Shown here: positions 21,197 through 53,700 of the stretch, one piece after another | Layout of the letters: each line of letters opens with the position of its first letter | Numbering within the stretch: the stretch's first letter is position 1 | Assembly (NCBI GenBank): GCA_964590995.1 | Contig: CAZPYY010000001.1 | Span: 762-64,761, forward strand | Source: an uncultured Planctomycetia bacterium | GTDB taxonomy: Bacteria > Omnitrophota > Gorgyraeia > Duberdicusellales > 4484-171 | Length of the DNA: 64,000 bases | Reading direction: 5' to 3' | The notes under the pieces: generated by a model | What the model saw: only the letters and a program-made list of their open reading frames with translations | What the model was told of the DNA's origin: nothing | The model's database searches: none | Program-made: the position numbers and the translations under genes

Positions 21197-21225
21197 GATT
21201 ATATATAATATATCTATTACTGTCA
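21197..21225 (-). promoter_or_regulatory. consensus sigma70-type promoter TTGACA-N17-TATAAT on the minus strand immediately upstream of lysS
   Basis: minus-strand reading 21225->21197 gives ttgaca gtaatagatatattata tataat; the -10 ends only 8 nt before the lysS ATG (21188), implying a near-leaderless transcript or an internal start. Confidence 0.4.
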
Positions 21226-21248
21226 AATTAAATCCCTGCTTACCCATA

Positions 21249-26432: not shown

Positions 26433-26760
26433 TTAATATTTAGGTATCGACGGTATATGTATCGGTGGTGGAGTATACACTGGCGGCATATCAATATTCA
26501 CAGGGAATTGCGGCTTAAATGGGTCTCTGTAATTAGGTGTCGGCGGTATATACACTGGTGGTGGATTATATACCGGCGGCGTATAATGATTATTCATCAT
26601 CTGCTGATATACCGGATTCGTTTTTATCTCCGGCGGAGGGTTGTAAATTCTGTTTATGTTTGGAAATTGGCGCATAGTGTTAGGGCCACGGTAATTCCTA
26701 ATAGTATCTATTAGCGGTGTTTTTGGTACATTAAACTGTTGTAAATCCCGCTGAAGCTGT
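26433..26760 (-). repeat. coding low-complexity Pro/Tyr-rich tail (PPVY/NPPP repeats) at the C-terminus of the giant protein
   Basis: protein ends ...YTPPVYNPPPVYIPPTPNYRDPFKPQFPVNIDMPPVYTPPPIHIPSIPKY; DNA shows reiterated ggcggtata[tc]ac units. Confidence 0.7.
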
Positions 26761-29700: not shown

Positions 29701-32700
29701 AAATCAATTATTTTAGGATTATCATCTATCCTGTCAGAAAGTGCCAGCATAGCCGCTACCCGCACGCTAACTTCTTCATCCTTATTGGAAACAAACTCAA
29801 ACAATAAATCTGTAACTTCTTGTTCTTTAAACTGTACTAAAGAAGATATTATTTTACAACGCGTTCCTGAAACATAATCTTTTGCTGCCTTGATTAATAC
29901 AGGCAAAACCTCTCTACCTCCGATACGCCCTAAAGCAAATATTACATTTGATTGAAATTCTTTATATTCAGCCTTTTCTAACAGCTCAATTAAGTATGAA
30001 GTTGCTTTTGAACCACCCAATTTACTTAACGCCACAATTGCTTCTTCCATTACATTAATATCTCTGCCTTTTAAGTTTGAATCATACTTTTTCGGATTTG
30101 AGATAATATCAATAAGATATTTTACTGCCTGGGGACTTCCTAGCTGTGCTAAAGAGAAAACAGTTAAAACAAATACTCGTTCTCTTATCTCCTCTGTAGT
30201 CCACTTATTTGGTAAAAGTAGCCTCAAAATGAACTCATGTTTAAATTCATCTGCATTGTAATCCCCCTTGAGGGCTTTCATTAATGTATCTTTGGCCAAA
30301 GAATCGCCTAAACATGCTAATACCCTTGCAGCATAGAAGGGGGTCCGAAAATTATCACTCTTTAAGGCCCTTAAATACCCTCCGTACAACTCCTCATGAG
30401 TCACTCCCAACTTAATCAAAACATCTCCTGGAGGATAAAATAACTTAGGTTCTACAATATATAAATTATGCTGCCCGGCAGCCCCGGTTGTCATCTGTAT
30501 ATAGCCATCCACTAATCCTTTCTTTATCTCGTTAGTCATCTCAGGTGCACGAAATAGTTTAGGGCTTTGGGTGGATACACACCAATAGTAAATTAAAGCA
30601 TTACCATAATTTTTACGTTTAAGTGCTCTCTCTGCTATCTTAATCTGTTTATGCGTGAAAGCTCCAGAGCCTGGGGTAGCACACCCACTGTGAAAAACCA
30701 AACTTAATAAAAGCAATATAATTATAGCCTTACCAAGAAATGATTTTACCTTGTTTAGGCGAATCCCTGCCTTGCCGGCAGGCAGGCTAAACACCTCCCG
30801 GTTGAGGACTGTCCTCAACCGCTCTTTAAGGCTTTTGCCTGTTATATTTTCTTCCCCTACCGGAGAGCTGGTCGACTCAAACTTAATCTTAAATACTTCT
30901 ATTTGAAGCCCTAATATCATATCCTGCTGTCCAGCAGGGCTGTAAGCAGGAATGATGCCAAGTTTCCTATCCTCAGCAGCCGTAACTAAAACCAAGGCTG
31001 CCGGATTTCTTATTTTTAGTGCCTCAGCAAAGTTTTTTGTTTTTTTGCGTATTACTTTCTCATAATCTCTATACTCTATAGAAGGATCATAATCATCTAT
31101 GGAAGAGTAATAATCAAACTCGATAACTGTTACTAAATTACGCGGAAAGGGCAACACAGAAAGGTTGTATTGATCTACTACTCTATCTCCGATATAGTCA
31201 TCGCAATAGTACCCTGGTATAGAAGGCGTAATCCACCAGGGCTCAATGGCTAATCCTCTCTCAACAAGGTAAGGTACCCAATTATTATTCTTAAGCATAC
31301 CCGAATAAACCCAATTATCCGAATGCTCGTCGCCATAGAAAAGAGAAAAAGGTGCTTTAAGAATTCCGCGAGCAACCAGTCTTTCTAACCATCTAATACC
31401 TGGAGCGTGTATCCGGCAAAGAGCGACAGGACAATCCAGCAATAAAGAAACTCCCTCTGATATTTTAATTGGGCTGGAGCTAAAGGATAAAGTTTGATGG
31501 TTTTGAGGATTATCAAGAACTGTGGATTTCTTAGCTTTAGAAGAAAGGGCAGGCGAAGAGGCCCCACCAGCCACGGAAGAGGTAACCTCTTCTTGAGTTT
31601 TAACCTGCCCTTTTATATTATTATACCTTTTTAAATTACCAAGGGAGAGAATTTTCTTAAATATTTTTTTTGTGTTATATATGATTTTAATTTTTTCTTT
31701 GGATATCTTGAAGAAGGTAAATATTTTAAATGACTTCCTAATCGGTGGTGCGTGTGATTTAAAATTTAATATATAAAACTGCACTGGGGAGCTGGAGGAA
31801 TTTTCTTGCTGATCTAGCATTCCTGGAACTTTTGTCAAGGCGATAATTAAGCGGATAATCCTGGAGTTTCTGGCAATCATCTCATCCCGGCTTAACCATA
31901 TGGGAATTCCTAAGTTATTGAATATAGAGCTAAGGAAAAAACTTTGATTGAAACCTTCTCCTTCCTTAATAAAATTAAGTATGTCTTTTTCCGAAAGCCT
32001 TCCTATTTCCTGGGAAATGCTTTCTAACTGAGATGTATAATGGAATAGAGGTTGAGGGATGAATATGTTAATTGTGTCAGTCAATTCCAAAGCCACTTCG
32101 TTATGCATACATCTTATAGCAAAAGTAATTGGTTTTTCAATGGCCGGCAATCTACTCATTGTCTGGTATACCCCATCAAAGATACCGAGTACAACCTGAC
32201 TGTTTGCCGGGCTCACCTTTACAGGTTGATCTTTAACTATTTTATATATACCTTCATCAATATCCTCTCCAGTTAAAAACAGGGCCCTTTCCGCCACCTC
32301 TTTACGCAAGTAAAATTCTGCCTTGCCCCTGCGTTGTTTATCCTCCAGCATAAGCCTAAAATATGGCTCATCATGCGTATTGACCAACTTAAGCGAAATG
32401 GAATAAGAGGATGATTGAATCGGCGAGCTGGAATCACCATTTTTTAACTGTTTTGCAGAACCAATAATCCTATCTTTTAACCTATTACTTAGTTGTTTCA
32501 TGAACTCTTCGCTTGTTTTTATATCAACTGTCAATGCCTGAATAACTTTAGGGTCAACCTCTGTATGTTTTACCAAGGCTTCTATTAAATAATCTAAGAG
32601 ATAATTTAGTATCTGAGAAAATACTTCTTTTTTGAACTTTACATCATGCATATCCTGCAAAGATAATAAAAGACGCTTGATTGTTTCCTTTATGTCCTTG

Positions 32701-35700
32701 GGCACACTGCTATCTGCTTCTCTGATAACCTTATCTATTTCTTCTAAGCTCAATAATTTAAATACATCTTGAAGAGAAATCTTCTCTTTTATGTGAATAT
32801 CTCCCTCATCAATAAGGCCATGTTGAATCGCAACACTAACTAAAATGAAAATTACTGCCACCTTTGTGCCGTCTCTTAGTTCGCTTCTCCACTTAAGTGA
32901 ATCAACCTTAAATATGTCTAAAGTCGTTTCATCTCCTACAACAAAATATAGCGTTTTTTCATCTTTGTTGTATCGAATCGCCACAATTGGATTGCCAGAC
33001 CAAATTGCCTGTTCAAAAGGTTGATTATCTTGAGTTAGGTACTGCAAAAGTGTAGTGCCATCTTTTGCTTCTAACTGCATTTTCTCAATAAATCTTCCTT
33101 GATCCATCTTATTCTTAACAAAATACAAACCTCCCCCATCCTCGCTAACTTGGAAAGTAAAGACCATATCTGGCGACTGTAAGTGTATAATACCCTCCTC
33201 TGTACTTGTAGGATCTATAATCTCAACAAAACCTGCTTCTTTTAACATTTTTAAATAGTCTCTCTTTGTTTGCTGCTCTTCCGCGCTTACCGGCGAGCTG
33301 GAAATTGAAGAACTGCTAGTGAGGAAACGCGGTAAAATATCTGCTAACGAAACATTCTCAATGTTTTTGACATCTCTCAATATCCTTTTAAGTTCTTCGG
33401 CGCCATCTCTTCCTCTTCGAAAACTGGTCCAGATCACAGCCTCCCAAAATATAGGGTCAGGCTTTCTCTCTAAAAATTCTACAAAATTTTTAAGGCTACC
33501 TTGATCCCAACTAATAACTGCTAGATGTCCTAATCCATGGTATCCTTCACCAATCATAGTTTTTATCCTGTCAAATAGAAGTTGGATTGCCTCTTTACCA
33601 AAATTATTTTTAAGCCTCCCTAAAAATAAACTGGCCTCTAGAACGAGACTCTGAACATGAAAGTCTTTGGAATGATCATGTAGTAGTATTACAAAGTTGA
33701 CATCTCTATGAGAAAGTATTTCTTTTAGTCCTGCCAATTCTAAGGAACCTGCTTTGAACTTCTTTATATCAATAGCTCCCTCATTAACAAGTTCTCTGAC
33801 TTTTTCTTCAATATTGTTAACAGCGGAATTGGATTCCTTTATAGGCGAGCTGGAGCCAACAAACGAAGGATAAAGGAAAGAAGAAGCTGCCTTTTCATTT
33901 ATCAACATAGAATTAAGCTCCGAAATAAGGTTGTCTACTATAAAATCGATAAATTCTTCAATGGCATGTTCCAGCGACTCGGCGACTGTGGTAAATGCGG
34001 GATTAACATTTTTATCTCTTAGGATCTTAATTGTCTTTCTTATATCCTCTATTATTTTTTCATTTATTATCTTTTCTATCTCTTCAGCAGGAGTGTCAAT
34101 AATGTTAAGAAATTCATAATGGGCGGTTATCTTATGAAACTTATCACCTATACAGGCAAAGAAATCAGCGTCAAAATCTAAAAATATAGGCCTTGTTTCA
34201 TCTTTAAAATCAGGAAGGCCATCCAGATGCACAACATGCATCTTGACTTTCCTTAGTCTTATCAATTCTGCCCCTTGCGGTATACGCAAGTTCCCATCTG
34301 CCTGAGGATGCTCACGGCCAAAATAGCAGTATTTACGCCCATCTTTTAGCTTAAACATAGCTGCATACACACCAAATTCTTCGTCGATACCTAATGCATA
34401 TCCTTGGGGATATACCTGCCATATTTCATCAATCAAATCATATAAAACACCTGCGAAAATATAGCAGTCTTCAGCGTAAGTAATACTTTTTGCTTCTTTA
34501 ACGGTCTTGGGTTGCGGTAAAATACGCAGAGGCGCGCCAGCATCTTCATGGGCGTCAATATGAATAAGTATTGCCCCCATAATACCTTTAAGAATCCGCA
34601 ACATTTCCCAATATTTATAAGCTTCGCCATGGTATTTTATCCTGGCGAATTTATTTTTAAGGGCGTTATTTACCGGCGAGCTGGAAGAATCTTCTCCTCT
34701 TATCCAACTTTTTAGTTCTTCTTTTGAAACTTTACCATAAAGTTCTTTTATCGAGCTTATTTGCTGTAATATAACTGAAGGATCGATGCCCTTCTCATTT
34801 TTAAGGAGGACAACTCCGGGGTATCGTGTCAATTGCGCTTCTCTACCTTCCTGTTTAAGTAAAGCGCACACTCTTCTTTCATGAGATGGTACCGTGCGAA
34901 AAACAAGCCATTCTTCAATCGGGCTACTCGAGACGCAATTCCTCAGGCTTTGTACTTTCGAGGCCGAATTACACTCATTGCCAGCAACTGGCGAATCATA
35001 ACCAAAGGCCGCAAGAGAGCTGGAAGAAGCATTGGGAGCTTCGGGCTGGTACAATTCCGGAAAGAATTCTTTGAGCTTGCCGGAGAATTCCTGATGCATT
35101 AATTGCAGGAATTCCGCAAGCTCATATCTGGAATAGGTTCTGCCTAGTTTATATAACTCTAAGCGCAGACTAGTAAGTTCGTCTATTTCCTCCAGCATCC
35201 TGTCATTGACCAGGGCGTTAAGGAAGCTGAAACGCAAGGAACGTGCGTAATTCATAGTATAAGGAATATTATTTGTCACCCAGAGCGCTTTGTAAAGTTC
35301 AACCGGATGCTCCAGAAGCATTTCGAAAAAAGTAGTTTTGTTAAGCCCTGTTTGGTCGAATCCCTCGTGATTGATGTTTGAAATTGCCTTCATTATCCGG
35401 TTAATCCACAAATTATTACGCCACAACCTGCTAAATGTACCTCTGAAGTCTTGGGGAATCTTATCAAGGTCCGGCCTAAATAGGAATGCTGTCGCTAATA
35501 CATCAAATTTACCTTGAACGAACCTTTTGTTAATTCTAGCACCGCGTAAGTAAGGGTTAGACAACGGTCCCGCCTCCTGCGGAAGCCTTAATACCTTAAG
35601 GTCCATCAAATCTTCTATATGCACACTTTCTGCGACAATAAATATTGCCTCTTTATCATCATAAGGATAAAATTCGATGTCCCCAACTCTTTTTCTATAA

Positions 35701-38700
35701 AGAATATCACCCTCTGTTACGCCTTCGGCATCTTCAATGGAAATAGCCCGGTCCCGCCATCCTTCAAAATGCTCAATTGTCGCCATTTCTTCTTCTGTCC
35801 TGATATCGGCTTTAGGCCAATCCGGATGGCCCAAAATAATCTTTCTCATATCAAACAACAGATCCGGTAAAAAAGAAATAATGGCTGTTGTATTCTTTAA
35901 GTTAAATGTGATATTCTCAACGCTACAGCCCGAGAATATCTTGGCCAACAACTCCCGCCAAGTCTGGCAAAGATTAAAGGTAAGGGCCTTGTTGCCAATC
36001 AGGTTATTTGCCCGTTTAAGCAAGCTGGTAAGTAAATCCTGAGTGGCGGAATCAAGTGCATACCCGGCCAATAAATCCTCGTGGGTTAACCTCTCAAACG
36101 CCGGCGCCGAGGAAGCACCAGAATCACCTTTCGTAGGCGAGCTGGAAGAATCAGCTCTTAGCTCGTAGCTGGTAGCTAGTAGCTGAAAACTATCCGCTAC
36201 AGGCGATGAGCTATTATCTAGCAGTGAGCTGGAGCGGGGGGAAACGAAAGACGAGGTATGAGAGACGAGGGATGAAGACGCGATACGCGAATCTTCCCCC
36301 GGTGAGGCGGCGGAGACGTTAGAGTAATGGTTACTACCCTTACGATTAATATACTGAATCATATCTTTCGCCCATGAGAATATTCTAATGAACAATAGTG
36401 GCTGCTCAGACTCTTTAGTTATCATATTAATAAGAGGTTTATTATCAAGGCATACTCGCACCAAGGCCTGATGTGTTCTTACCAGTTCATAGATAGTGCT
36501 TTTAAATTTTTCACTTCTGACATATGCCTCTTTAGCAAAGATTGTTTTTTTAGGACCTTTTTTTCGTTCTCTGTATTCATCTTTATAAATCCACTCAAGT
36601 GGCAGATACATTTCTGCCCAATTTCCTTTAGCTAAACGCTGTAAATTTTGCATTGTAAAACCAATCTTAGTGATTATGCAATTATCTAAATGCCCGCCGG
36701 CAATGATTAATCTTTGTCCCTTAGATAAATCAACCCTCCAATCTTTTACATGAATAAGGTTAACATTAGGCAATCTTGATTTTAGATAAGAATATCTTTC
36801 CTTAATAGGCATAATGCTGAAATATTGAATATTTGGGAAGTGGTATTGAGCGGAAATTGAATCGGTACGCTTTGTAGCGAAAGAATTGGGTTCTTCACCT
36901 ACCGGCGAGCTGGAGTCAATTGCTCCTTCCTCTCTCAAAGTGTTGACTACGCTATACAACCATGAGTTGATGACGAATAGTCTTGCAATAATACTTGCGA
37001 TATCATTTTCACAATCATATCTTCTAAAGTAATCTTTCAACAATCCCTCTATTTTGGCGCGTTCAATGGCTGTATCGATGACTGTTATTTCTTCGGCCGG
37101 TATGGTCTGTTTAGGATATTCTTTAAGCGAAATCTTATAACTATAAGCAGGTTTTCTTGTAACTTTTTCCCTGTCTTCTTCATCTAGCGCTTGCCTGGAG
37201 AAGATAGCGATAGAGCGTTTCTCCAGTGCAAGTTCTGATTGCGGATACTTTCCGACAAAAACTAATTTGTCTACTAATTTTCTTAATACTTCGTAGTTTT
37301 CCAGCATAAACTCTGATGTAGATAGACCTTCTTTAAAATTAAGTACGCTAAATTGTAAGTTGCCATCCTTATCAGCCGTTAGCCCGTTCTCCATGACCTC
37401 TCTCCTTGCCGATCTGGAGATATTTACCCATAGCGTTGGATGGAATAGCCTTCTCCCACATTGTTCAATCACAAACCTCAATCGCCTCTCAATGAAGTGC
37501 GGTATGTTTTCGTGTGATTTATAACTCTTTATCTCATCGGGTGGCGTACTAAGAATATCTTCTTTAGCTAAGAAGTCATGCATTCTTACTATATTTTTTG
37601 CGCGCGGGAGATTGAACTTCGTAGTTGCGCCAATTATATAGATAAAAGAGGCTGCTCTCTGGATGGGGTCACTAGTATAAATTCCAAAATACGGATTGCT
37701 TGATATGAGGATATGTTCTTCGTAGTCATAATTTATAACTGCGGCTAAGAATCTTTCAAACGGAGCAACGGGCAACAGTCCTTTTCTTGCCATCCCTTCC
37801 AAATGATCTGCCATTTCAGCAAAACCATTATCTCTCAGATACTTAATTGCCATCTGTAGGTCTTCATCTTTCGGCCCTTTTCTATGCAACTGGTCAAACT
37901 CCTTACCAATACCTTCCAAAATACCCTCCAAATCTCTGCCGATTTCTTTTCTAGCCGGCCTTGGGATGCCTGGCATCGCTCTGACTATATCCTCTCCCTG
38001 CCCGTCCGGCAAGCGGGTCCCTTCGGCGGAGGAGGAAGAGGAGGAATTATTTGTCTTTGCAATTTCCTTCAGCACATTCAAAATCTCCTGCCGCAGCGAT
38101 GTGCGACTAAGTTTATTGTCTATGGCGGGCGAGCTGGAAGATTTTCCTTTCAAATCCAGAATCTCCCGTAAAAGATTCCTTTTAACCTGTGCATACAGTT
38201 CCAGTAATACTGGTGCTGTGCACAGCTTCTTGGAACCCCTGTGTATCAAAGATTCCTCAAAGTCAGGGATATCTTTTTTATGAAGGGCATGTGTGGGATT
38301 TAGAAATGCAGACATTAAGAATGTCTTGTTATTTATTCCAGAAAAATAACGTACCAAATGCGAAAGTACTGATTGATCACTCACTAATATTATATCTGCC
38401 TGCTCTACCGCGTCTGCTCTAACAATCTCTATATTATGGAATTTATAAAACCGAGCAAGCCTCTCTCGCATAGCCACATAACCCCGGCAGTAAGAAATAA
38501 TTTTAGTAATAAACTTACAGGAAGACTTTTCTGCTCTAAGCGTTGTACCCGCAGAGAATATTTCTATGCCCATTCTATCCAATGGATCTTGGAGCACTAA
38601 TTCAAGCAATGGACTGCGAAAGACATTAACAGTACATACAACACGAATGCGCTTAATTTGTTTAATTCCTCTGGCTATAAAGATATTCTCGACTGAACGC

Positions 38701-41700
38701 TTAAGCGGCGATGAAGAAGCGGCTTCGCGGACAAATACTTCCAAATAAGCATTTTCTGTCTCAAATGATGTCTCCTGAAGATTAACGGAAAATATTTCCT
38801 TGCCTACAACCCTGAAACCCTGAGATTCTAATAAATCAACGCTTTTGCGGAAGAAAGGCTTGACCACAATCAGGGTATCAGCTTTGATTTTCTTTGATAT
38901 CTGTTTAGAGTTTATTACTTCTAACAATTCTATTAACACCTCATGCTCTGGATTAACCAATAAAATATGGCTCAAGCTATGGCCGGGAATAAATTTTATT
39001 ATATTTGTATCTGTCCTGACAACCGCCAGGTTGTCCAGGTCGACTCTTTGCGCGGCAAGCAAACCCTTTTCCCACATCTGCGCCCACATTATATAAATAT
39101 AATCCAGCGAAAAATATGATTCGTAGATATCCGTGGCAATAACTCCTACATCAGGATTCCTTTCGGCAATAGTTTTTGCGGTTTTGGCTGTTCCACAGCC
39201 AATCTCTAGAATAATCCCCTTACCGCGAAATCCCTCAACAACAAAGTTAACTTTTGTAATATTCTGCCTACTGTTTTTCTTCTGCCTCAAATAACCTTGC
39301 AATCCCGCATATTCAGCGGAAATTGAATCAGTAAACTTTGTAGTGAGAGAATTAGGTTCTTTGCCCACCGGCGAACTGGCCTCAAAAAGCGCCTGGCCCC
39401 TTGAGGCGGTAGTTTTGTAGTCTGGAGTTATATCAGTGACGCAGGGATGAAAAGGCTGTTTAGGAGTTTGAGCTTCGGGTTTCCCTAAAAACATATAGCC
39501 TCTCAGCGCACTTTTCAACATAACTGTCTTAACTTGTGATAGTTCCTGCATTATTTCTGGTATGCACTCTTTGGCCGCATCTATCATAGTTGGAAAAATA
39601 TTACATATTATAAAGCCTCTTTCGGAAAGCAATCCTGCTAAATCAACAATATGGTTTGTAAATTTTCCTTCCCTCACTAAATGGTATAAGCCTAAATAAC
39701 TGTAAATAATATCTAATGTTATAGGACCGATAAATCTTTGAATGTTTTCTACTAGATTCTCGACTACGCCAACAATAAACAGAATATTATCGGGTATCTC
39801 TTTTTTTGCTATAGATAGGCTATATGTATCGCTGAAGGCAATAATAAAGACATTATTGATTCCTTTGTCGTTCAACCATTGGGCCAACTCTATTGGAGCT
39901 GTCAAATCTCCTGCCCCCCAATCTAGTACAAATACTGGTTTGGATGGCTTAGATTTAGCTATCTTAACTATCCAATCATCACGTAATGACCAACCGAGCA
40001 TATAGTTAGAAAAGTCATAATCTATAACTTGAAAAGGAGTGTCGAAGGCCCTCCACCCCCCCTCTTTCACCCACACCCATAGCTCACCACTGGAACTTAT
40101 GCGCACCCTTGGCGTCTTTTTCGCTGTTAAAAGCTTCTCTATCTCTTCCTGAGGCAAGTCTGGTTCAAACACGATACGCCTATTAGCCTTAAATCTAGCC
40201 CACGCTTCGTCTAAACTGAGAAGTGAAGACGAAGCACATTTTTCTGTCGCTATTGCCAGTTTAGCCGCCAAATGAAGTTTTTTAATGGCAGAAGACGCAC
40301 CTCGTTTACTCCTTTTTTTTGTCTCTCCATAATCCTGGTCGCCAGGACGTATTCGTAGCGCGCTCCATGTCGCCACATTTTCATTTTCACCGACTCTCAC
40401 GCAATTGGGCTCAATTTCAAAACCAGAGTGCTGGATAAACTCCTGATGCGCTTTAACAACTTCTTTCTCCTGCCATAAGTCAATTGCGTAATACTTATAA
40501 TGGCCGCCGGCAATAAATAACTGTATTTCGGGTATAAGCCTCAATAGATACATGCTGCTCATGTTGGTTACATCGTACTCATCTTCCCATTCGCCAATAT
40601 TTGAGAACACGGCAATCTTACGGCCCCTGCGGTTAATGATTTTAGCGCATGAGCCGAGAAAGTCCTTATCGGAAATATCGCCCAGATGAGACCGGTAGTC
40701 TTTTCCTTCCGCAAACCCATTGAGCCTCAGCTGTGTTCCAGCCTGTTTAAGTCTTTCCGGAAAGAGCTCTATGATATCGGCAAATTTCAATCCGAGCTTA
40801 AAGCCCGCAAGCGTCAAAATAGCGTCTCCTGCACCGACATCTATACCGTCATAACCATCCAAGCCTCGCTCCATCATATGAATAATCATAGCTGTCGTGT
40901 TTGCCGCGTATCCTTTCTGCGCTAAATCTTTTTGGCTGAGGCTGTTGACTAATATAACATTGGCGCTTAACTCTTTTTTTAGGATTTGGTCTAACCTTTC
41001 ATAACAATAACTATCCATAAAAAATAAATAAGCGATACGGATAACGATAATTTTTTGTTCTCCGCGAACCTCAATCAGGCCGTCTTCTCTATAAAACCTC
41101 TTCTCCCCATAAATATAGTAAGGCTGCCATTTACTAAACCCATCCCATCGCCGTAACACAAGATTTAGCTGTTCGGCAATTTTTTGGCTCAATTGTTCTG
41201 CGTAAGCCTCATCGAACCTTTCGGCTTCTTTATCTGCGGGCGAGCTGGAGAGAAGACTGCCCAGAGAAAACCCTCCTTTTAGACGCCCGAGCTCGCCACC
41301 ATCGTATCGGAATGGATAGAACTCTCCGGTTGTGCTACTCAATTTAACATTTCCACACCATTGTTCACCTCTTGCATGCCAAAGTAATGGTATATTTTCT
41401 TCTTCTAAGGCCGCCAATATAGCTTGTGCATTTTCTTCATTCGAAATCTCAATTTCCTCAATATGCTCCGGTGATACCTCAGGTTGCACCAATATTGCCC
41501 GCAAGATTTCTTTCTGTATAAACGGAAGGGGTGTCAGAATTCTTAAAACCTCCTGGATGCATCCTTGAGCAACGCTCGCAGGTGAGAGGAAAGTATATTG
41601 ATAGGTCTGGGAAGCTTTCAGATGAGCCAAGACAAAGACTTTTCTGTTGATATCAAAAAGAATGAGATAATTACAGTCTATTGCTCCCTCTGATTCTAAC

Positions 41701-44700
41701 TCTCTCTTGCTTCTGTCGCCTCGGACAAGGATTCCGAATTCATCGCGCCGTAATATTGCGGCGGGGCCTTTGGGGTCAATTAGACAATCAACTGAATTTC
41801 CTGAGATTCTTAATCGATATTTTACCGCAGTAATCTTTTTTACATCATCCACAGGCGAGCTGGAGAAAACTGAGTCATTGTTATACGCGGCAATTAATCC
41901 TCGAATTACATCTACCACATCTTCATCTTCTGAGGCCTTTGGCTCACCAAACAAGTCTACGAATATATCCAGACCAAATTCATCAACTATATCACTAAGA
42001 TTTAACTTAACTATGTCTATGATCTTTTCTCGATAGATATTTAATCCGAGATTGCTTGATTTCAATATATCCCGTAAAGACAAGAGCCGCTGAAGCACTT
42101 CTTTCTTAAAATCCTTCCTTCGTTTACTGAATAATTTTAAGAAAATATCCTCTATCTGATGAGAGGTCCGTTCTTTTCTTAAATAGTTTATGAGTAAACG
42201 TAACCCTGATACACTAGCAATATCGCGGGCAGTATCTAATTCCTTTTGTTTAAGTTCAGGGATCATTCTCCACAATTCCTGCTTCACCTTATTTATTCTG
42301 GTAAGAGCACGGCCGGGAGAGCGGCTAAGTCCATAAACCCATAAGTTGCGAATGCGCTGTTTTATCGAACTTTTATAGTAGTTATAGATTTCATAATCAT
42401 CATCCAATAAACTTAATTCATAATCGCTGAGTGGCCCCCAAAAAGAAGAAACATACCGCTTTTCTGACTTTCTAAACCAAAGGGCGAATTCCTCGTCTAA
42501 GTCGGATTCTAAAGAAGTACACCTGATGACCAAACCGTCTTTGATAATAATCCTTACTCTCTCATTAGGATGCCTGCGAAATCTCGCCCATGACCTTATT
42601 CTTGCTCGCCTTAAGCCATTGACTAAAGGTCTGGCACCGCCCAAACGAAGACTTCCGTTGCTGTCTAAAAAACCGTAGGTAGTAACATCTTTAAGTTTAG
42701 CGAATTTCTCCGGCCTTATTCTCCCCCTATAAACATCGATAACCCTCCCTGTTTTATTATCTATAATAGGGAAAAATTCAAACATTGAACAATCATTCAA
42801 AAAGAATATTCTCATAGGCATCCCATTATAGATTTCCAGCTCATACTCTGTATTGCAATAGCCTTTAAATTGAAACGGGCCCATTTTCTTTCCCAAACTT
42901 ACCCGCGCCCTGCTATTGGTTTTACCCCTTACTACTATATGCCCAAACTGCACTCTCTTTTTGTATCGAAGAGGGAGGTCTTCCTTATTTATATAAACCT
43001 GACCGGTCAATTTACCCTCAAAAGAATGAGCAAGAATCTGACGCCACATACCTTTTCTTATTTTTAGGTCCCTATCAGTCTCTGAGGCGATACCGCCTTT
43101 GCTTTCAGGCCTTAGTTGCTTCTGCATCGCAATTATTGTTTTATTCTCTGGGCCTCGAGCCTTAAAATCATCTACAGTGCAAATAGGACCGTTTCGTAAC
43201 TCATTTACATCCACAGGCGAGCTGGAGGAAACTGTATATCTCAACAACGTATCATAGCTCTGCAGTAACGCTGTTTTTGCCTTTTTTTCTACGTCCCCAT
43301 CCCATGCTCGGCAAGGCCTTAGGCTTTGGGCGATTTCATCGCAATAAAATGGCAATATATCTTGAGCGGATTTCAAGAATAACCCTCCAAAAGTAAATTG
43401 TCTGCCTGGGTCAAAATTCTTTATGCGCTGATTATCAATACCGTAATTGAACGCCTTTAATATATCGATGCTTATAAATCCTTGAGAAAGTATATCTCCG
43501 ATAGCCCCAATGAATTTCATAGCCAGGGGCTTTCTCTCGGCTAAGGGATAAGAGGTTAATTCGCTCTCTAATTCTGCAACTTTCTGCTGAATCACTATAT
43601 CAAAACCGGCTAAGCGTGTTAGTTGTGTATTTACCAAACGGTCTGCATACATACTCTGGGCATTGCGATAACTATTTCTTATTGGTCGGGCCCAATGCTT
43701 CTTTATCGGCTTCACAACGATTTTCTTACCTATATATACACGCGCTGTATGTTTAAACTTAGGATTATACAGGACACCGAATCCCAATTCTCTCATCCAG
43801 TCTGTAACATCTAAAATTGAAGCTTTCGTTGTATCTCTCTGAGTACTACATAGTTGTTTTATTAGTCTCATTTCTTCGCTGAGAAAACATTTTGCTACAG
43901 GCGAGGAGGAAGTTCTTTCCTCAACATCTTCTTTATTCTTATTGCTTTTATAGTCTTCTTTAATTAAATGGTCAAATAAAAGATTCAAGAAAGTCCATGC
44001 GCCCCAACCTAATACAATCTTTACTACGCCCCAATTGAAATTCATTACTATCTTTCCTGCGCCTACCATTAGAAAAGATGCTATTGCGGCAAAAACAGAA
44101 AAGAAACCATTAAATCCAAAAAAATCTTTAATAAAAATCTTTAATGGTACGCTAGCTTGAGTTTTTAACCTATTGCTTCTAGCAGTATCAGCAAGATATA
44201 AAGAAACGGCTATTGCGATGCAGCCTAATATTAAAGAATATCTCAGAATCTCGCCAGACAACACATTTCCCACAGGCGAGCTGGAGTGGACTCGATAAAA
44301 ACTGTTTTTAGGAAACACATAGTTATACATTCCCTGAATTCCGCCACTTAAGCGCTCAGAATATGGGAAACAATTAGGAAAACATTCTGCCATTGTGTCA
44401 GCAGCGTGAGTTGTTTCATCAATTATAAGATAACCTAATGGTTTCAGTAGTTCTTTGGCTTTATCTAGCCATTCTTTCGGCCTGCCAAAAATCCTTCTTC
44501 CACCTACAAAATCAATGAATGTCACAAGGTCGAAACTGTGTGGTTTTAAACCATATTGCTTGATATCAAAAACGCCTATTTCGCTATGGACGAACCTAAT
44601 CTTAAGGTCTAATATTAAGTCCTGTTTCTTTAAACTATTGGAAATAGCTATTGCGTACGCTTCAACGAGCTGAGTTTTGCCCTCATCTACATCTACGAAA

Positions 44701-47700
44701 GTAATATCCTTACCCACTAATGTCAGCAAATGGGGAAAGATCAATAATCCATCTCCGACTACCATAATCTTCTCGATACGAGGCTCCAAGGATGGATCTA
44801 AGATAAGAGAAACTAATTTTTTCGAATAGTATAAATCTTTTTCAAAACCTTCTTGATATTTTTTCATAAAGAATGTATATGCTTCTCCCAGAGTCATATT
44901 CCGTTGCATCGGAGAACTGGAAGAAATAATTCCATTAAGGACTTTGAGCGAGGAATTACTTTGAGCAAACCCGGCATAAGCAGAAAGGCCCCAGTGCCTG
45001 AACAACTCTTTTCGTCCCGGGCATTTATTCTTCACGCCCGCGCAGTCAAGGTCACAATTGAAACATTCAATAGGCTCCTTTGCTATCGGGCCCAACCCCT
45101 CAACAGTCTCATACCTGCGAAGCATAATTCCTTCTTTGGGTTTTATGCCGCGAATAGCTTGACCGTCAGGAAGGATAGAGTACTTAACGAACTTATCGAT
45201 ATCTTCATTCGAAAGTTTGTCACCAGCCTCTATACGGCCTGAAGGGTAAAATAGACCCTTTTCTCCCAACTGCCAAAATCTTCCGCAGTTCTTTATGGAT
45301 TTTTTCTCAAACTCTATTAAATAAAGCATCTTCTTTGACTCAAGGACTTCCAGTATATCCTGGCACAAATTGGTAGGATCACTAATGCGTCTAAATAAAA
45401 ATACTTTATATTTACTGGGAAGTAAATTCTCTTGTGCCAATTTAATAATATGCGCTATATGCTCAGCATATTTCTTAATCCCCAATCTGCGCATCCAGGC
45501 ATTCGGAGCAATGCTCAAAGTCAAGCTTACGACTACACCTCCTCTTTTTAGTGCTTTTATAAAGGCGCGCTCAGCCACAGAGCCGCGCTCAAATCCAGAG
45601 GTATGAACCTCGCCTACAGGAGACAGCTTCAAGATATTACTACTGTCTTTATCATAAACAAAGTCATAGTAGTCTCTGAAATAATCTCCCCTGAAAAGCT
45701 GAACAAAGTTAAAGCGGACACTGCTTTTCCTAAGAATAAACTCTAACTGCTCAAGCCATATCCAGGGAAAAGGGCTTACCCGAATAGTGGTTGCGCCGTC
45801 ACAATGGTCGCACTGGGTAGAACATCCCCAGGTAGCTATGGCAGGGGCTCCTTGGTTTCTGAATGAGAGTTTGTAGTCCTCTTTTCTTCTTCCCTCAAAT
45901 AAAGGAATAAACCAATCAGAGGCAGGCTCTATAAGTGCGTTAAGATTTGCGATTTGGGTTTCGATATCGGCTTTATTATGTTGCTTTTTTATTGATTTTA
46001 TGCGTCCTCTCCCTATTTTTGATAGTGGCACTTGATAATGCTCAATCATCTCTATCCTTGCCTTAATCGCCGCTTTAATAAAAGATAAATAATCAACAAA
46101 TTCCTGGGGATTCTCCTCCCTACGCAGGCCTCTTTGGATAGCAGCATTTGTGGCAGCGGCTTCCTTTATAAACTCCTGATATTCGAATATCTGTTTCTCC
46201 CAATCCAAATATAAATAAGAATAATTACCTCTCTGGCATTGTTTTAGTCTCCATCTTGCCATCTCTTCCAATGGCAAAGATTGTCGTACGGAACGTTTCC
46301 CGCCGTCTTGATCAACTACGCTTGATGAGGATGAAGAATCCTTATTTTTTTTGCGAGCGGGCCTATACCTAAAGGCCATGGATTCGTAAGTCGTATGCGG
46401 CTCTTGCTTCAAGGGCACAGAATCAACATCACTGAGACCAGATAACAAACTCTTGCTTTTGCCTGCTGGTTCTGTCTCTCGGGCAGGAAAATCCCTGTAC
46501 CCAAGTAATGCTAATATCTCACTCATATCATCGGGATGCAGATTCATCGTGCCGTTTGGAATATGCTCAGGAAAACTTACCTCTATCTTGCTGCCGTTCC
46601 TTCTTCTGATATCATCGGCAAAGAAATCAGCCAACAGATTAATAAGCTGCTGACGCGGAGCCTTCAAGTTTCCGTTAAGAGACATAAAATCAAGTTGAAA
46701 ACAATGGGAATGTTTTATGCGTATCCCGCCGCCGGGGATTTCTTCCAATAAAGGGTACATCGCGCGATAGACAACTTCCGTATAGAATTGCGAGATGTTT
46801 TCAATTTCGTCTAAAACGCCGAAAGCGCTTAACTCTTCTCTCTCTCCATCAAGAAGTTTCAGATAGATTTTTGTGCCCTCATTTTCCTTTATCTCTTTGG
46901 CAATATCACAAAGAAGTTCAAAGGGCCTTGTATGAAGGCGCCACTTAGCCTGAAAAATAATGGAGCTATAAACCGGACTGCTGCTTGTCTCTGAAGCAGC
47001 ATGTCCTGAAACAAAGCTATCGTCTAAAGAATATAATAATCCTGCTCCTGACTGCCAAAATGCGTCAAAACCATCAAGGCGCAAATCACAAAAAATGCCG
47101 CGCTTTCTTAGTTGACATAGCAACTCATGCGTTAAATAACCCCGGACAGTCAAAAGAGTACCGGCAGGGCTAATACAATCTGTGATGCGGCCGATAACCT
47201 CCGGTATATCTATCCTATTACTATTGATAATTGATGAATAATTAGTTAATACAAGGTGATTAAATTGTTTATTTTGCGGGAATGATATCTTATCAACAGA
47301 TGCCTGTCTAAAAGTTACCTTACCTCCTGACTCTCTAATCTCTTTTTGGAATATACAGCCAAGCATCATAAGCTCCTGCGATAGCCGTCCATCCTTATCG
47401 CTATCTACCACCGTAACCTGCATACCCATGAGAGCATCAGCCAAAAACAACATATTTCTTCTGTTAGCAAGATGCAGTGAATGATGATTGCATAGATTGT
47501 CTTCCTCTTTTTGAGCCATTATTTCAAAGAGTAATGCTGTTCGTTTGCGGATTATTGCGCGGTATCTACCCTCAATATAAACCGGCTGATCGGCGAGAAT
47601 AACATCTAATATGCTGTCGGCGTAATCATAAGGCTTATAAGAAATAATCGAACTTGATGATAAAACCGGACCTGAAGGCCTGAAGAAATGCCCTGATGTT

Positions 47701-50700
47701 CCGTCTGGCTCAAAGCCTAGCTGCCGGCCATACTCTATCCAGGCATCAAAAGCTCCCCTGGTCTTTCCGCGGTATTGGGGAATTATTAAGATATCATTAT
47801 TTTCACCGAAATTAGCAACAAATTCTGAGAATAAGATCCTACCTAACCGTTTATCACATAATTTCTTATCCCGCTCGATTGTATGAATAAATAGGTATTT
47901 TAAACCGAGCTCTTGTTCTTCATAAGCCAATAATATCGCCAGAGGCTCATAGGGGCTGCCGATATAATAAAGAATAACCGGTTTTCGTAGTAGAAACTTC
48001 CACCTGATGTGCTTCCGGTCATCATCTGTCATGACGAACTTTCTATCTCCGGTTTCTTCCCAGGCCCGCAATACAGCTATAACCTGATTCTTCTTTGTTA
48101 CGGTAACTATCGGTAAATGAGCACCGCTCTCATACAACTTTATCCCTGAAGAAGCGGTGTCTATACCAATCAGCTTTTTAATAAATTCATCAATAAATTC
48201 TTCATATTTTTCTTCGCCCAAATCATATTTTTCTAAAATCTCATGCATTCTTTCTTTCAATGATTCAATACGCCTAAAGTCTTCTGTGGAACCAGATAAG
48301 TCCAAGAATAAATCCCGATATTCTCTCTTTTCCCGATCAGCCAATTGCTCCCAGAGCTCATCAAGTATGGATAATACCTTATTCTTCTTGCCGTCTACGG
48401 AAGGAATATTATTGAATACGTTGATATAGCCTAAAGCGCGCCGCACAATATCATCCATGCCAGCATCTTTGCCTAAGCTATTTTTCGCTGCCTCAAACAT
48501 AATCCCGGCATAAAAATCTCCCTTAAGATGAAGCTTTCCGATAGGCTCAAATTTAAAACCGTACTGCACTTCTATCTCTAACAGAGCCTGTTCGAATATA
48601 CCATTATCTTGTTCAACTGTTATATATTCAGCGGCGGAAGATTTAGCGCTCCTGACCTGCTCTTTACCCAGATTAAACATTTCATACTTGAAGTTAGCTG
48701 CAGTCTCTCCCCAGACGGCTGATAAATCGCTGTTGCGAAATGCATCAAGACCCCAGCGCTTAGTTAACATCAGGGTAAATACGGCTTCGGAGATATATAC
48801 AAAGGCGTCGTCCGCTATCGTTACAATTTTATGTTGTGGTAATATATTGAAAATATATTGCGAAACCAAAGCGGATATTATAGCCGGGTTAAGCCGGCGG
48901 CTGAGGAATAAAACAACCAAGCCCCCTCGGTCACTTAAAACGCCTAATAGTTCTCCGGCTAAAGAAGACAAAACCAGGTCTCTTCTGTCAAAATCATCTA
49001 AAACGCTGCCTAAGGTATAAGGTTTAACTATAATTTGACTTGCCAGTAGTTCTCTTTCGTTTACTGATAGGTTTTTTCCAAAAACGTCAAGTACAAACAC
49101 AGAATCTTCTAAAATATACGTTTTCTGCTGAGAGCTGAATTCCTTATCTACAGCAAAATAGATACAGTTTAATGTGTAAGAATCAATCTTTTGTTTTCCA
49201 GCAATTTCAGGAAATCTTTCCAGGTCATAAATAATTGCTTCCGCTATCTGCCCGCTATGTAGATATAGTGTATGAAACTCATCCGGTTCAAGATCGCCAG
49301 CGCCAAACAACAATTTACCGAATGAATCAATGAATTCTTCGAGGTTAAAAGATACACGCTTAGTTGCTGTCTCAATATCGATATTTCCGTTAATAATTAA
49401 GCCTTTGCTGTTTCGGTAGTCATTACCACCTTTGATGGACGACGAAGATTGGCAATGGTTTTCGTCTTTCTTCTTGAAAGTGATATTTCGTGACCTGGTC
49501 TCTCCGGCTATATTCTTATAAATAACTCTGAAAATCTGCTTGGGGAGATTCATAATCTCTTCATGAAGAATACGATAACGCTCGGTATTTTCATAAATCA
49601 TTATATGTCTCTTAAATTCATCATTATCCTTAAACAATTCAAGATAATGTTTTTGAGTCTCACCGTAGCGCTTCTTAAACCAGTTCGCCAGATGCCTTTT
49701 GCCGCCTTTTCCGTCCGGCATCCAGTGTTTTGGCCTGCCTAAATCATCAGTAGTCAATACGTGGAGCTCATTTTTACTCCTGGCGCATTTCATTAAGTAT
49801 TTACCTTCCCGGGTATTATCACCGGCATATTCGATTTCGATTCTATTTTTTGTTATAAAAAGCATAATTCCAAAGATATCCTGGATGAATTGGGCAATAT
49901 CTTCTCTTAACTTATGAGGGACACATTGCCTAAAATAATACTGTTTAGGGGTAAAAGTTATAAGGTGAAGTAAGTATCGCTTTGCGCCGCGAATATCATT
50001 GTCGCTAATGAATTGATTGACTGTCAGGGATCTTTGGAGGGCTCCTAAGCTGTCATAATCAGGCCTAAACTCAAGGAGGGCTTCCACAAATTCAATCACT
50101 TGGGGATAAGGAAGCTGAAGTTTAATCTTCACCAGTAGCGGAGGCACTCTCACTCTACGGATATAGTAAATATCATGGTATTTAATGATTTTCTCGGTCA
50201 ATTTTAATTTCTTATTCTTAAGCAACCATTCTCCAAACCCACTATCAGCATCAAGCATAGCATAATCTCTGCTGCTAAGAGTAACTCTTGGTTTCTTGGG
50301 TGAAATCTTCCTTCTGTGATCATCTAACTTTTTAGCGGCAATACGCTCAATGCTGCCCCGTTGACCCTTTAGGGTATTGAGCCTCTCACCCAAGGCTTTT
50401 CTAACTGACTGCGATCTTTTAACAACATTTAAATTCCCCTGTTTGAGAAGTTCTTTAATCTCTTTTAATCCGGGAATTACCCTCTTTACCTTTGTGTCAT
50501 CAGTTTGCCTGCCTTGCGCTGTGGTGATAATTATTGACTTGCCAATCTTAGGCCTGGCAATTATACTGTCTATAAGATCTATAACAGCTGATATTTCTTT
50601 ATCAACCTCGCCAAAGAACAATTGTATCTGCTGGCGGGGACGAGACTTTTTTAACTGGCGTATTCTTTCAATGATATCGTCCATGTCCTTTATACATTCA

Positions 50701-53700
50701 ATAATTATACCTATCTCCTCATTTATATCTTCCACTTTATGAAATTCCTGCCTCAACTCATCAGGCAGCAACGCGATATCTTTTTCTTTCAAATCCAATA
50801 AGGCAATAAAGTCTTTATACCTGCTTAGAGAACCGCCTTGATTACTTACCGAAGAAGAAATGGAAGAACTGCTTTCATTATTCTCATTCAATCGCCGTGC
50901 ATTTCCTTTAAGCCTATCAAGATGGTCTTTTGCACCGCCAAGCTCAAGGCCGTAATATTTCCTTAATACTTCCAGCGTTTGCCCCGCATCACGAATAACC
51001 CTTGCCCTATCATCACACTTGTTTAAGGTCATTTCTATGTATGACATGAAATCTCTCTCTATCCTATCTTCCAGCCATGTTTTAAACCTCTGCAATGCCC
51101 CCCGCTGGTATGACCTCTGATCCTTTCTTCCTTCAAAAAACCGGTTGATAGTCACTTCGCTAAAACCAAAAATGGAAGCAAGGACTAAATAACTCACCTC
51201 ATCAAACAATCTCATCTTTACGAACTCAACCATATCACTCTCGGTTAAATTATCGAAGCGAAGCGAGCTGGCGCGCCGCAGAATTACTTCCATTACTTCA
51301 TTTTTTGTGTCTTCTAACTCTCCGCATAAATATCTAAACCCTGAAGTTAAGTAAAACTGAACAACTAAGCTTATCAGCTTATCGTATACCCCGGACTCCT
51401 TAGCGTTACCGGCAAACTCAAGTGCAGCCACGCGCAGCTGCTTGGTAAGATTACTGCGCGACATCCCCAACATATTGGCTATTTCTTGACGGGTATGGTC
51501 AGGATACTTATGTATTGCCTCAATAATTCTCTTTCTTTTCCAGGCATGCTTTGATGTCATATCCCAATTTTTAAGCACTGTTTTTACTAACCTGCGGACA
51601 GGCTGATGATTTGAATCCAGAGCGAATCTCATCATATCTTCAGAGATTTTCCGAGTAAGTTTTGCCCGCAAAGCCTGCTTAAGCGTATCGGGTGCAGCCC
51701 TATAAAGCCGCCTATAGGCCCCTCTGGTTATCTTTGGTTGAGTCCATCTTCCTAAAAGAACCCTTGTTATATAAGAAGGATGGACTTGATGCTGTTTTGC
51801 CAGAACCTCATCAAGCGCTTGCACTGAGATTGCTTTGTTGCGTTGCGCATAGAGAAGAACTTCTGTCTCCCGGTCGTCCAAAACCATATCACGGCGCGCC
51901 TGGCGTATTAAGGCGTCAAGTTCTCGCTCAAGCGCGTTCATTAAGTGCAGGAACCATTTTCTTTGAGGAGACAACCGTGGTGTGTAAGTATTCTTTTCTA
52001 TCGGGGATGAAGCTCCTACAACAGGAAACCCCGCCTGAATAGCAAGAGCTATGTTATTGCTACGGCTTTTCGCTTTAACTGAGTTAATCGAAGAACTGGA
52101 ATGCCTGTCTAAATCTTCTTCTCTCATGCCCATAAGCTGGCAAGCTAGACATATCTGGGCTGATTTTTTTATGTGCTCTCTGGCCTTTGTAAATGCATCT
52201 CCTGCGGCAACAAAGCTTAATCGCTTAACAACAAGCTCAAATGGATAATCATATTCCCACATTGAATAAAACCGTATCATATCTTTTAACGAGGGGAAAT
52301 AATTCCTTTCTTCTAAATCCAGAAATTTAGCTACCAAATTGTCCTCTATCATTACAAACCGTATATCCGAAAGCATAATATCACTCACCACTAGACCTTT
52401 ATATTTACCCAGACTGAAACTCTCCAGCCAAGCCCTGATTAAACTCGTGGCTTCCAAAGACTGTAATCTTATTTCAATATCGGCCTCTTTGACTCCTCTA
52501 TCCCTCAAAATACTCTCCATATCTTCCCTGGTAAATTCCTCGATAACTTCCTCTATATAAACCGCTTTTGCCCTTTCAAAAGAAATATATTCAAAAGGCT
52601 GGGGAACAGGCGAGTACTCCTGAAACCTGTCATAAAAGTGGCTGGCAATCTCAAACCTTTCTTCTACGCCATAACGAATGCCTGTTTCACCGGAAAGTAT
52701 CTTCACAATTACCTCGCCATACTCAGGGTGCCGGGCAAGATATACAGAGGCGTTCTTACCCTGATGACCCGTCATGTGGGATATATCGATACCTTTTTCT
52801 TCTTTCAATTTACCCAATATAATCTTCTCTATTTCCGAAACGTAACCAATGCTGCTGCTTGAGCTGAGACCATGCGAGAAAGTAGCGGTTACCGGCGAAA
52901 GCGCTTTCAGATTAGTCAAAAAATAATAAAGTTTTGGTTCTCCTGCTGAATTAATAACTGAGCTATTTAGCTGCCGTGCTTGAGCCCTATGATGCGTACC
53001 GGTCGCAATTGGGCTGCTGGAGTCAACATTTTTCTTTGCAGCAGCACGCTCTAAAATAATTCTTTTCGCCTCTTCAATAGAATCAGTTACCTGATAAAGC
53101 GATACATCATCAGCATTAACCGCTTTTAAAGGAATCATTACCGCGCGAATCCAATCATCCAACTCACCCCAGAACTCACGCCCTATAAGAATAATTGGCA
53201 CTGGCTTAATCTTGCCAGTTTGGATAAGACAGAGCGTCTCAAAAAGCATATCAAGGGTATCAATACCTCCGGGAAAGAATATTAAACCTAAACTGCTGTG
53301 TCGTTGCATAGCAGTTTTTAACGCAATATGACTCTGAAAACAAAAGCCTCTATCGCCGGGTAGCTGTCTCCTGATATGTTTTCCTTCATACATCGTAATA
53401 AACCACCCCATTTCTAAATTAGCTTTTTGCTCCAAATGCTGATATGCCTTGCCTATTGCTTTCGCTATACTTTCTTCACCGCGACGCATGATTAAAATAC
53501 GTTCATTATTAAGCGAAATAGATAGCTCATGCGCCATCAGCGAGAATTTACTGGTAGTATCAACCAATCTGCCACCAAGAATAGAAACAGCAGGACCTAA
53601 GCGGCTCAATATGCGCGTGGCTCTGAACAACTCGCTGATAAAAACTCTGATATCAATGCCTCGCGGCTCAATCTGTCTGACTCTCAAATATGCGTCAAGA

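Follow-up and report, generated by a model that had tools for sequence, protein, structure and literature searches.

A junction-bounded three-helix cassette, probably an internal membrane anchor, in a giant multi-enzyme open reading frame of Omnitrophota

Results

Three hydrophobic helices lie between two junction motifs

The window analyzed here is a stretch of 64,000 nucleotides (contig CAZPYY010000001.1, positions 762 to 64,761), whose minus strand carries a giant open reading frame (ORF); within it we found a short cassette of three hydrophobic helices, which we take with moderate confidence to be an internal membrane anchor. The window holds the C-terminal 12,518 codons of the giant ORF (26433..64000, minus strand), which are free of stops over 26433..63989 and run off the window's end, and the gene continues beyond. 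Amino acid (aa) i of the ORF corresponds to window positions 63989-3(i-1) downwards. The same gene is present on three JGI contigs with identical downstream genes, where it was called at 25,853, 25,848 and 30,257 aa. By record-range arithmetic, all three calls start at record position 1-3; consequently, each is a truncated version of a gene longer than 30,257 aa, so that the figure of 1.3 MDa in an earlier note on this DNA was not borne out. On the related contig L090, which is NODE_219 of ENA record ERZ24794666, a syntenic gene called at 36,007 aa lies inside its contig.

The cassette spans aa 6569-6693, and its features all lie on the minus strand. It opens with an SSSP motif (aa 6569-6572, 44274..44285, codons TCC AGC TCG CCT, then V) directly after a strand that ends in ...FYRVH, and the part before the first helix reads SSSP-VGNVLSGE. 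Helix 1 (ILRYSLILGCIAIAVSLYLA, aa 6581-6600, 44190..44249) is followed by a 22-aa loop (DTARSNRLKTQASVPLKIFIKD, 44124..44189) with five K/R and two D residues, predicted to be cytoplasmic by the positive-inside rule. Helix 2 (FFGFNGFFSVFAAIASFLMVGAG, aa 6623-6645, 44055..44123) is joined by a tight turn of seven residues (loop 2, KIVMNFN, 44034..44054) to helix 3 (WGVVKIVLGWGAWTFLNLLF, aa 6653-6672, 43974..44033), which is Trp-rich, the least hydrophobic of the three, and contains one internal Lys. A charged C-terminal tail (DHLIKEDYKSNKNKEDVEERT, 43911..43973), with a predicted local distance difference test score (pLDDT) below 50 in the model, leads to the second SSSP (aa 6694-6697, 43899..43910, codons TCC TCC TCG CCT, then V). 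The flagged stretch therefore translates as SSSPVGNVLSGE-ILRYSLILGCIAIAVSLYLA-DTARSNRLKTQASVPLKIFIKD-FFGFNGFFSVFAAIASFLMVGAG-KIVMNFN-WGVVKIVLGWGAWTFLNLLF-DHLIKEDYKSNKNKEDVEERT-SSSP. The earlier note had placed three helices between two SSSP motifs at 43960-44265; the translation bears this arrangement out, and the span was correct to about 15 nucleotides (nt).

On either side are modules of a different kind. The upstream module (aa 6357-6568, 44286..44921, minus strand) has a class-I methyltransferase-like fold and opens with its own SSSP, while the downstream module (aa 6698-6921, 43227..43898, minus strand) has a single homologue (P0004, 52% identity). Elsewhere in the giant, Pfam matches include Glyco_transf_5, Glycos_transf_1, a weak Trypsin_2, Lysine_decarbox/LOG, a winged helix-turn-helix (HTH), several methyltransferase families, and HEAT_2 in 10 stretches that form a long C-terminal array. 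The view that the rest of the protein is made of enzyme-type modules (GT5/GT1, trypsin-like protease, LOG, winged HTH, methyltransferases, HEAT repeats) is thus upheld. Neither a SecA_DEAD helicase domain nor a C39/S8 peptidase was among the Pfam matches in the C-terminal 12,518 aa.

The helices are of transmembrane grade

Transmembrane (TM) grade was called from hydrophobicity, calibration on proteins within the window and domain boundaries. Hydrophobicity was scored by summing the Hessa biological hydrophobicity scale over 19-residue windows, with a cut-off of 4.5. The three helices have sums of 1.0 (the lowest in the ORF), 1.7 and 3.8; among all windows of the 12,518 aa, whose 0.1 percentile is 2.7, the most hydrophobic belongs to helix 1 and the third most hydrophobic to helix 2. 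The cut-off separates the window's proteins as expected. About 17 soluble proteins (ClpC, McsB, class II aminoacyl-tRNA synthetase, ABC ATPases and others) yield no segment at 4.5, and the membrane proteins yield their expected TM counts (OppB 6, OppC 6, FtsX/LolC-like 4, MlaE 5 and MlaD 1). The sum of helix 3 falls inside the range of the OppB/OppC helices in this window (-2.0 to 4.4). Across the 12,518 aa, only six segments score below 4.5 (four strong and two marginal), and three of these are found within 92 residues, a clustering whose probability by chance we roughly estimate at 1e-3. These sums and their calibration sustain the earlier assignment of transmembrane grade, and the three helices are most probably embedded in the membrane.

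Two further observations concern the cassette's composition and fold. Its GC content drops locally to 0.33 and the AT skew flips, as T-rich hydrophobic codons would make them do. Modeled alone with AlphaFold2, it consists of helices only (pLDDT 64, predicted TM-score (pTM) 0.31).

We also compared the cassette with a known membrane domain. PF02687, the C-terminal domain of FtsX-like permeases, is a three-helix membrane domain with an N-out/C-in topology. Like that domain, the cassette packs three TM helices into some 100 aa; helix 1 is followed by a basic loop on the cytoplasmic side, and helices 2 and 3 are linked by a short turn on the outer side. Membership of this family was rejected on its sub-threshold score (16.4 bits against a gathering cut-off of 25.5, E = 0.0099) and its partial profile coverage (positions 46-112 of 120); the match is most likely a compositional similarity among TM segments.

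The cassette is a discrete unit with no detectable homologue

We searched aa 6357-7375 (1,019 aa) exhaustively against 1.84 billion representative proteins and obtained 103 matches, whose coverage changes in steps that fall at SSSP motifs. The upstream module (aa 6357-6568) has 59 homologous proteins, the cassette (aa 6569-6693) has none, the region from aa 6694 to 6921 has one, and that from aa 6922 to 7375 has up to 63. Therefore, the cassette has no detectable homologue among the 1.84 billion representative proteins, and no related locus was found for the cassette and its flanks in species-representative genomes and JGI metagenome contigs. Its copies in three cluster members are 100% identical.

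The boundary with the upstream module is sharp. That module, with weak Pfam Methyltransf_31/23/12 matches, ends in ...NSFYRVH|SSSP, and its homologues finish with the same N-R-L-Y-R-V strand; stand-alone homologues of 217-232 aa stop at the equivalent of the junction. An AlphaFold model of aa 6357-6921, built on an alignment with 20 homologues of the upstream module, contains a methyltransferase fold (pLDDT 90-97) that ends just before the junction, followed by three separate long helices and by disorder across the second SSSP. Because the module ends at the junction both in its homologues and in the model, the helices are not buried parts of the neighboring globular domain, which answers the objection that they might be. 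We conclude that they form a discrete, self-contained cassette of 125 aa (aa 6569-6693) that belongs to neither neighboring fold.

The earlier note had also called for a check of whether homologous giants keep TM clusters at equivalent positions. They do not: no homologue of the cassette was detected, and a TM cluster is not retained at that place in proteins related to the flanking modules. Only 2 of the 59 upstream-module homologues have a TM-grade segment within 250 aa downstream, and in P0004 it is VSSPV and soluble sequence, not a TM cassette, that come before the counterpart of the downstream module. Module order itself is fluid, so that an equivalent position carries little meaning. In P0002, the counterpart of aa 6949-7381 is directly followed by the counterpart of aa 10533-10734, and in P0012 two methyltransferase-like module copies are combined with a protease module. 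Such module sharing points to combinatorial shuffling, as judged from sequence comparison, and not to vertical conservation of the giants' architecture.

Four giants (P0002, P0003, P0012 and P0024) have junction-delimited modules in common with the window giant at 30-56% identity, in a different order and with different neighbors.

Other giants carry TM cassettes bounded by junctions, including a 64-aa single-TM cassette between two GARL motifs in P0064, a 172-aa multi-TM cassette between SSSP and TSSP in P0096, and further examples in P0038 and P0054. Across nine junction-bearing giants, 9 of 22 TM clusters start within 60 aa after a junction, when 4.6 are expected (P ~0.025).

Junction motifs mark module boundaries

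The giant ORF contains 24 copies of SSSP, compared to an expectation of 0.17. All 30 of its SSP tripeptides have S, A or T before them and mostly V or I after them, and [S/A/T]SSP lies at a module boundary wherever this can be checked. The other 8,297 aa encoded in the window contain two SSP tripeptides only, neither with an S/A/T prefix. The motif [S/A/T]SSP[V/I] thus marks module boundaries in the giant ORF.

Other giants that share modules with this one have boundary motifs of their own (GARLA, 20-22 copies; ASPLA, 22; RSEMR, 11; RAETR, 9), and further ones carry 13-29 copies of [S/A]SSP[L/V]. The motif-bearing giants are P0038, P0064 (L095:3001-17916), P0042, P0054, P0063 (L096:230-9484), P0012, P0024 (L089:8962-21806) and P0096. 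The codons used for these motifs vary: Ser switches between TCN and AGY in the window giant and in L089; the GARLA gene of L095 uses CGG, AGG, AGA and CGA for Arg and CTG, TTA, TTG and CTT for Leu; and the RAETR motif of L096 varies synonymously at third positions in its Arg (CGC/CGT/CGG/CGA), Ala, Glu and Thr codons. By this comparison of coding sequences, the boundary motifs are conserved at the protein level. We accordingly downgraded the junction as a purely nucleotide-level recombination scar, as its amino acids are kept through switches of Ser, Arg and Leu codon families in this gene and three other genomes. Internal start sites were rejected, since the codon after Pro is often GTA, ATA, GCA or GCC.

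A nucleotide-level regularity is present as well. The 11-mer TCCAGCWSSCC occurs 18 times against 0.11 expected; examples of junction codon sites are 44274-44285, 43899-43910, 43216-43226 and 41854-41864. The variant TCC AGC AGC CCG is found in the N-terminal half and TCC AGC TCG CC in the C-terminal half. Selection at the protein level would not need codons as uniform as these, which hints at a further cause that acts on the nucleotide sequence.

The giant ORF also encodes a chymotrypsin-fold serine protease module (about aa 2100-2225, 57315..57692, minus strand) with its His in LTCAHV, its Asp in VDLAMLV and its Ser in GGDSGT (Pfam Trypsin_2, E = 2.7e-5, 25.4 bits against a cut-off of 27.6). 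A homologous module in P0012, a giant with SSP junctions, retains the triad, and the embedded module is a candidate processing protease.

Three side observations were made on junction-bearing genes. In P0038, a 7,022-aa protein fragment, a twin-arginine-like signal (GRRRLLQTGLILGGGLLLVGGTA, aa 3569-3620) directly follows a GARLA junction. On contig L095, a 688-aa gene (L095:18013-20079) with a weak match to Reprolysin_3, a zinc metalloprotease, directly follows a complete GARLA-junction gene of 4,971 aa, and its product may be the processing enzyme for the GARLA motif of that lineage. On an NCBI metagenome-assembled genome (MAG) contig that is Omnitrophota-like, two adjacent long genes (L089:59-9019 and 8962-21806; 2,986 and 4,282 aa) both have SSSP-type junctions and overlap by 58 nt; the pair may represent a single giant gene that a frameshift or an assembly error has divided.

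Predicted topology and a putative lipoprotein-type signal downstream

The positive-inside rule allows one to relate the charges that flank TM segments to their orientation. K and R were counted together: the N-flank has 1, loop 1 has 5, loop 2 has 1 and the C-flank has 4. This pattern predicts three spans, with the N-terminus outside, loop 1 inside, loop 2 outside and the C-terminus inside.

Upstream of the cassette, more than 6,500 aa within the window have no strong TM segment, and the modules there depend on the cytoplasm (nucleotide-sugar glycosyltransferases, LOG, a DNA-binding HTH and S-adenosylmethionine (SAM) methyltransferases). Downstream, about 4,400 aa of methyltransferase-type modules separate the cassette from a putative internal lipoprotein-type signal, VKSFLGKAIIILLLLSLVFHSGC (aa 11081-11103, 30681..30749, minus strand), which follows a TSSP junction by 41 aa and precedes the HEAT-repeat region. 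The segment at aa 11081, RLNKVKSFLGKAIIILLLLSLVFHSGC, has a basic n-region (K, K, R) and a 12-residue h-region, then FHSGC. Syntenic genes have equivalent elements before their HEAT regions, each an h-region that ends in [S/A/P]-G-C, with LFLNSGC in L090, LVGSGC in L092 and L093, and LPGC and FSAGC in L094; most of these elements lack the canonical Leu at position -3, and the one in the window is internal, not N-terminal. A signal of this type works from the inside to the outside, so its N-side would be cytoplasmic, in agreement with the predicted C-in end of the cassette. The putative signal implies export, possibly with cleavage by signal peptidase II, of the C-terminal HEAT domain. In a 2023 preprint, HEAT repeats were predicted to be extracellular (West-Roberts et al. 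2023, bioRxiv 10.1101/2023.11.21.568195).

A HEAT protein of 2,756 aa (L094:1693-9963) contains three repeated units, each made up of two TM helices, then a basic loop, then a lipoprotein-type signal (one of these reads ...LSPPISILIAILAVGFLGYYILKYLRKHFRKSIIIAMIVAITISTFFSAGC).

Host and neighboring genes

The ClpC encoded in the window is 81% and 75% identical to those of two Candidatus Omnitrophota MAGs, with the next matches at 72-60%; from this single marker, the host is placed in Omnitrophota at the phylum level. Downstream of the giant are genes for a 171-aa membrane protein, two PilZ proteins, an Opp transporter and a class II aminoacyl-tRNA synthetase, and further on LolCDE-like genes, McsA/McsB/ClpC and Mla genes.

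The 171-aa protein (25902..26417, minus strand) has about four hydrophobic segments and starts 15 nt after the stop of the giant ORF. It belongs to no Pfam family, and its 24 homologues, down to 45% identity, are all metagenomic. On the identical JGI contig, it is followed by two PilZ genes (135 and 99 aa). In the contexts examined, the gene order is giant or HEAT gene, small TM protein, in some cases a tetratricopeptide repeat (TPR) protein, then PilZ. The four-TM gene lies directly downstream of a giant or HEAT gene in three contigs, L092, L093 and L094; in L090 it comes two genes further on. In L094, its direct upstream neighbor is the complete 2,756-aa HEAT protein and not a giant of more than 10,000 aa, so the gene's conserved association is with the HEAT-bearing C-terminal part. 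The suggestion that this protein is a partner of the cassette consequently lacks support, as the conserved neighbor is the HEAT-bearing C-terminal gene or module.

Discussion

The reading that we favor, with no more than moderate confidence, is that the cassette is an internal membrane anchor in an Omnitrophota multi-enzyme giant, bounded by junctions on both sides. What limits our confidence is the number of true spans and the integrity of the chain. From the hydrophobicity and the charge pattern, together with the established biogenesis of membrane proteins, we infer a route of insertion, a topology and a tethering role. When the ribosome reaches the cassette, its helices would act as internal signal-anchor and stop-transfer sequences; the signal recognition particle (SRP) would bring the translating ribosome to SecYEG/YidC, where the helices would insert co-translationally. 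The finished upstream chain would stay where it is, with just the 22- and 7-residue loops to be placed. Since only short loops have to be placed, the size of the polypeptide is no obstacle, and the puzzle that the earlier note saw in inserting so large a protein is smaller than stated. Once inserted, the cassette would tether the neighboring cytoplasm-dependent enzyme modules to the inner membrane. One helix may not cross, most likely the weaker helix 3, or else helix 1 as a non-spanning helix; otherwise, the chain would be cut at the upstream junction. A local tether of this kind fits the inner-membrane-anchored enzyme arrays that have been published.

Four points weigh against this reading. 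Three spans with the observed charge pattern are topologically at odds with an uncut chain whose enzymes on both sides depend on the cytoplasm. All copies of the cassette come from identical strains and it has no homologue, so that conservation, covariation and the ratio of nonsynonymous to synonymous substitutions (dN/dS) lend it no support. AlphaFold2 models three long helices in the cassette at a pLDDT of 45-79, which is low to moderate. Finally, the domain and TM analysis covers the C-terminal 12,518 aa, with more than 17,700 aa of the N-terminal part lying beyond the window. The first point is a topological conflict: a chain that is not cut cannot have both flanks in the cytoplasm and cross the membrane an odd number of times between them, which leaves two options, a cut close to the upstream junction or a helix that does not span. 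For the same reason, the earlier note's conclusion that the protein is threaded through the membrane does not follow simply, as an N-out orientation would place more than 6,500 aa of cytoplasm-dependent modules outside.

Cutting the chain would resolve the three-span conflict, and this is one attraction of a tentative alternative, in which the junction motifs are protease cleavage sites and the ORF serves to translate many separate products together, in the manner of viral replicase polyproteins. The cassette would then be freed as a 125-aa three-span protein, N-out and C-in, whose 12-residue N-tail is flipped by YidC, an outcome that we consider possible though doubtful. Several observations are consistent with it: [S/A/T]SSP is found 30 times and always at checkable module boundaries, other giants have a motif of their own (GARLA, ASPLA, RSEMR or RAETR), and the amino acids of these motifs are preserved across codon switches (Ser TCN/AGY, Arg CGN/AGR and Leu CTN/TTR). 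Junctions are often followed by signal-peptide-like or TM segments, and a chymotrypsin-fold module with an intact His/Asp/Ser triad is present in the same ORF and in another SSP-type giant. The 2023 preprint raised cleavage as an open question and called the cleavage points unknown (bioRxiv 10.1101/2023.11.21.568195). In its widest form, which is again the less probable course, the boundary motifs would be processing signals and the giants would be bacterial polyproteins, made of shuffled, once-independent genes with their own targeting signals; these would be processed by the chymotrypsin-fold protease embedded in the chain, with signal peptidase II cutting at internal lipoprotein-type signals, and the cassette would be released as a small membrane protein. 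However, cleavage is hypothetical here, and the protease match is below the Pfam cut-off (25.4 vs 27.6 bits). Alternatively, the boundary motif could cap a linker or serve as a modification or docking site, and the uniformity of its codons (TCCAGCWSSCC, 18 vs 0.11 expected) hints at an extra cause at the nucleotide level. We found no literature that combines 'Omnitrophota' and 'polyprotein'.

The two other explanations differ from an internal anchor in opposite directions. If the uncut chain were truly threaded in three passes, one flank (the upstream >19,000 aa or the downstream ~4,400 aa) would lie outside the cytoplasmic membrane. Three TM-grade helices are what such threading calls for, and a TMHMM-based study placed most annotated domains of the giants outside the cell (bioRxiv 10.1101/2023.11.21.568195), yet its authors judged some predicted localizations highly unlikely. 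We consider it unlikely here, as both flanks hold enzymes that need cytoplasmic cofactors or DNA (glycosyltransferases, LOG, winged HTH and SAM methyltransferases), the upstream 6,568 aa within the window have no other strong TM segment, and the downstream lipoprotein-type signal needs a cytoplasmic N-side. At the other extreme, the helices may not span the membrane at all; they could make up the hydrophobic core of a small helical bundle, soluble or peripheral, or be the inert remnant of a small membrane-protein gene that became fused. The lack of homologues, and hence of any sign of conservation beyond identical strains, would allow this, as would the marginal score (3.8) and internal Lys of helix 3. 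It is nevertheless very improbable. No soluble protein of the window reaches this hydrophobicity even once, while three segments do so here in 92 aa; uninterrupted apolar runs take up roughly half of the 125 residues, more than a soluble bundle of such a size would allow; and the ORF is open for more than 90 kb, so dead in-frame sequence is unlikely to persist.

As an internal anchor, the cassette can be set against what is already described for giant ORFs of Omnitrophota, which have been reported as 'Archaeovorin'-type and under the label 'multi-enzyme metabolic cluster' (West-Roberts et al. 2023, bioRxiv 10.1101/2023.11.21.568195; 2026 preprint 10.64898/2026.06.07.730766; Seymour et al. 2023, PMC10066038). 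The published giants have HEAT repeats, Lysine_decarbox, methyltransferases and downstream pilZ genes. A 39,678-aa protein of V. archaeovorus has 42 TM helices, and a TM helix or signal peptide was found in 94% of 916 long Omnitrophota proteins, which the authors interpreted as inner-membrane anchoring. The window giant resembles these proteins in its Omnitrophota genome, in the length of its ORF (more than 30,000 aa), in having TM helices at scattered points of the chain, in its LOG, methyltransferase, glycosyltransferase and HEAT_2 content, and in the small PilZ genes downstream. In contrast to them, it has a low TM density (4 strong segments in 12,518 aa, against a published average of ~2% of residues) and no SecA_DEAD in its C-terminal 12,518 aa. 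TM helices in Omnitrophota giants are therefore already published, and the cluster adds one more instance. What is new is an orphan cassette framed by junction motifs, together with a predicted topology that argues for a processed chain or for threading that is not simple. Junction motifs, junction-bounded TM cassettes and internal lipoprotein-type signals are undescribed in the published accounts of Omnitrophota giant genes that we considered.

Viral polyproteins offer an analogy only. They carry membrane modules such as NS2A/2B/4A/4B of flaviviruses and nsp3/4/6 of coronaviruses. Like them, the window giant has short multi-helix hydrophobic modules between soluble enzyme modules in one long translation product, an embedded chymotrypsin-fold protease, a lineage-specific boundary motif, and an internal signal before a domain that is putatively exported. 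Unlike them, it is a gene of a cellular bacterial chromosome and is 10 to 30 times longer, and its cleavage is hypothetical; no sequence or fold relationship to viral polyproteins was detected.

Whether an ORF of 10,000-150,000 aa yields one chain or many products is the question on which the cassette bears. The authors of the 2023 preprint stated that missing information on cleavage points blocked further analysis (bioRxiv 10.1101/2023.11.21.568195). The junction motifs supply concrete candidates for such cut sites, and with the cassette there is a small, defined membrane product that one can seek. The motifs also offer a principled way of dividing giant ORFs into modules for predicting their structure and analyzing their topology.

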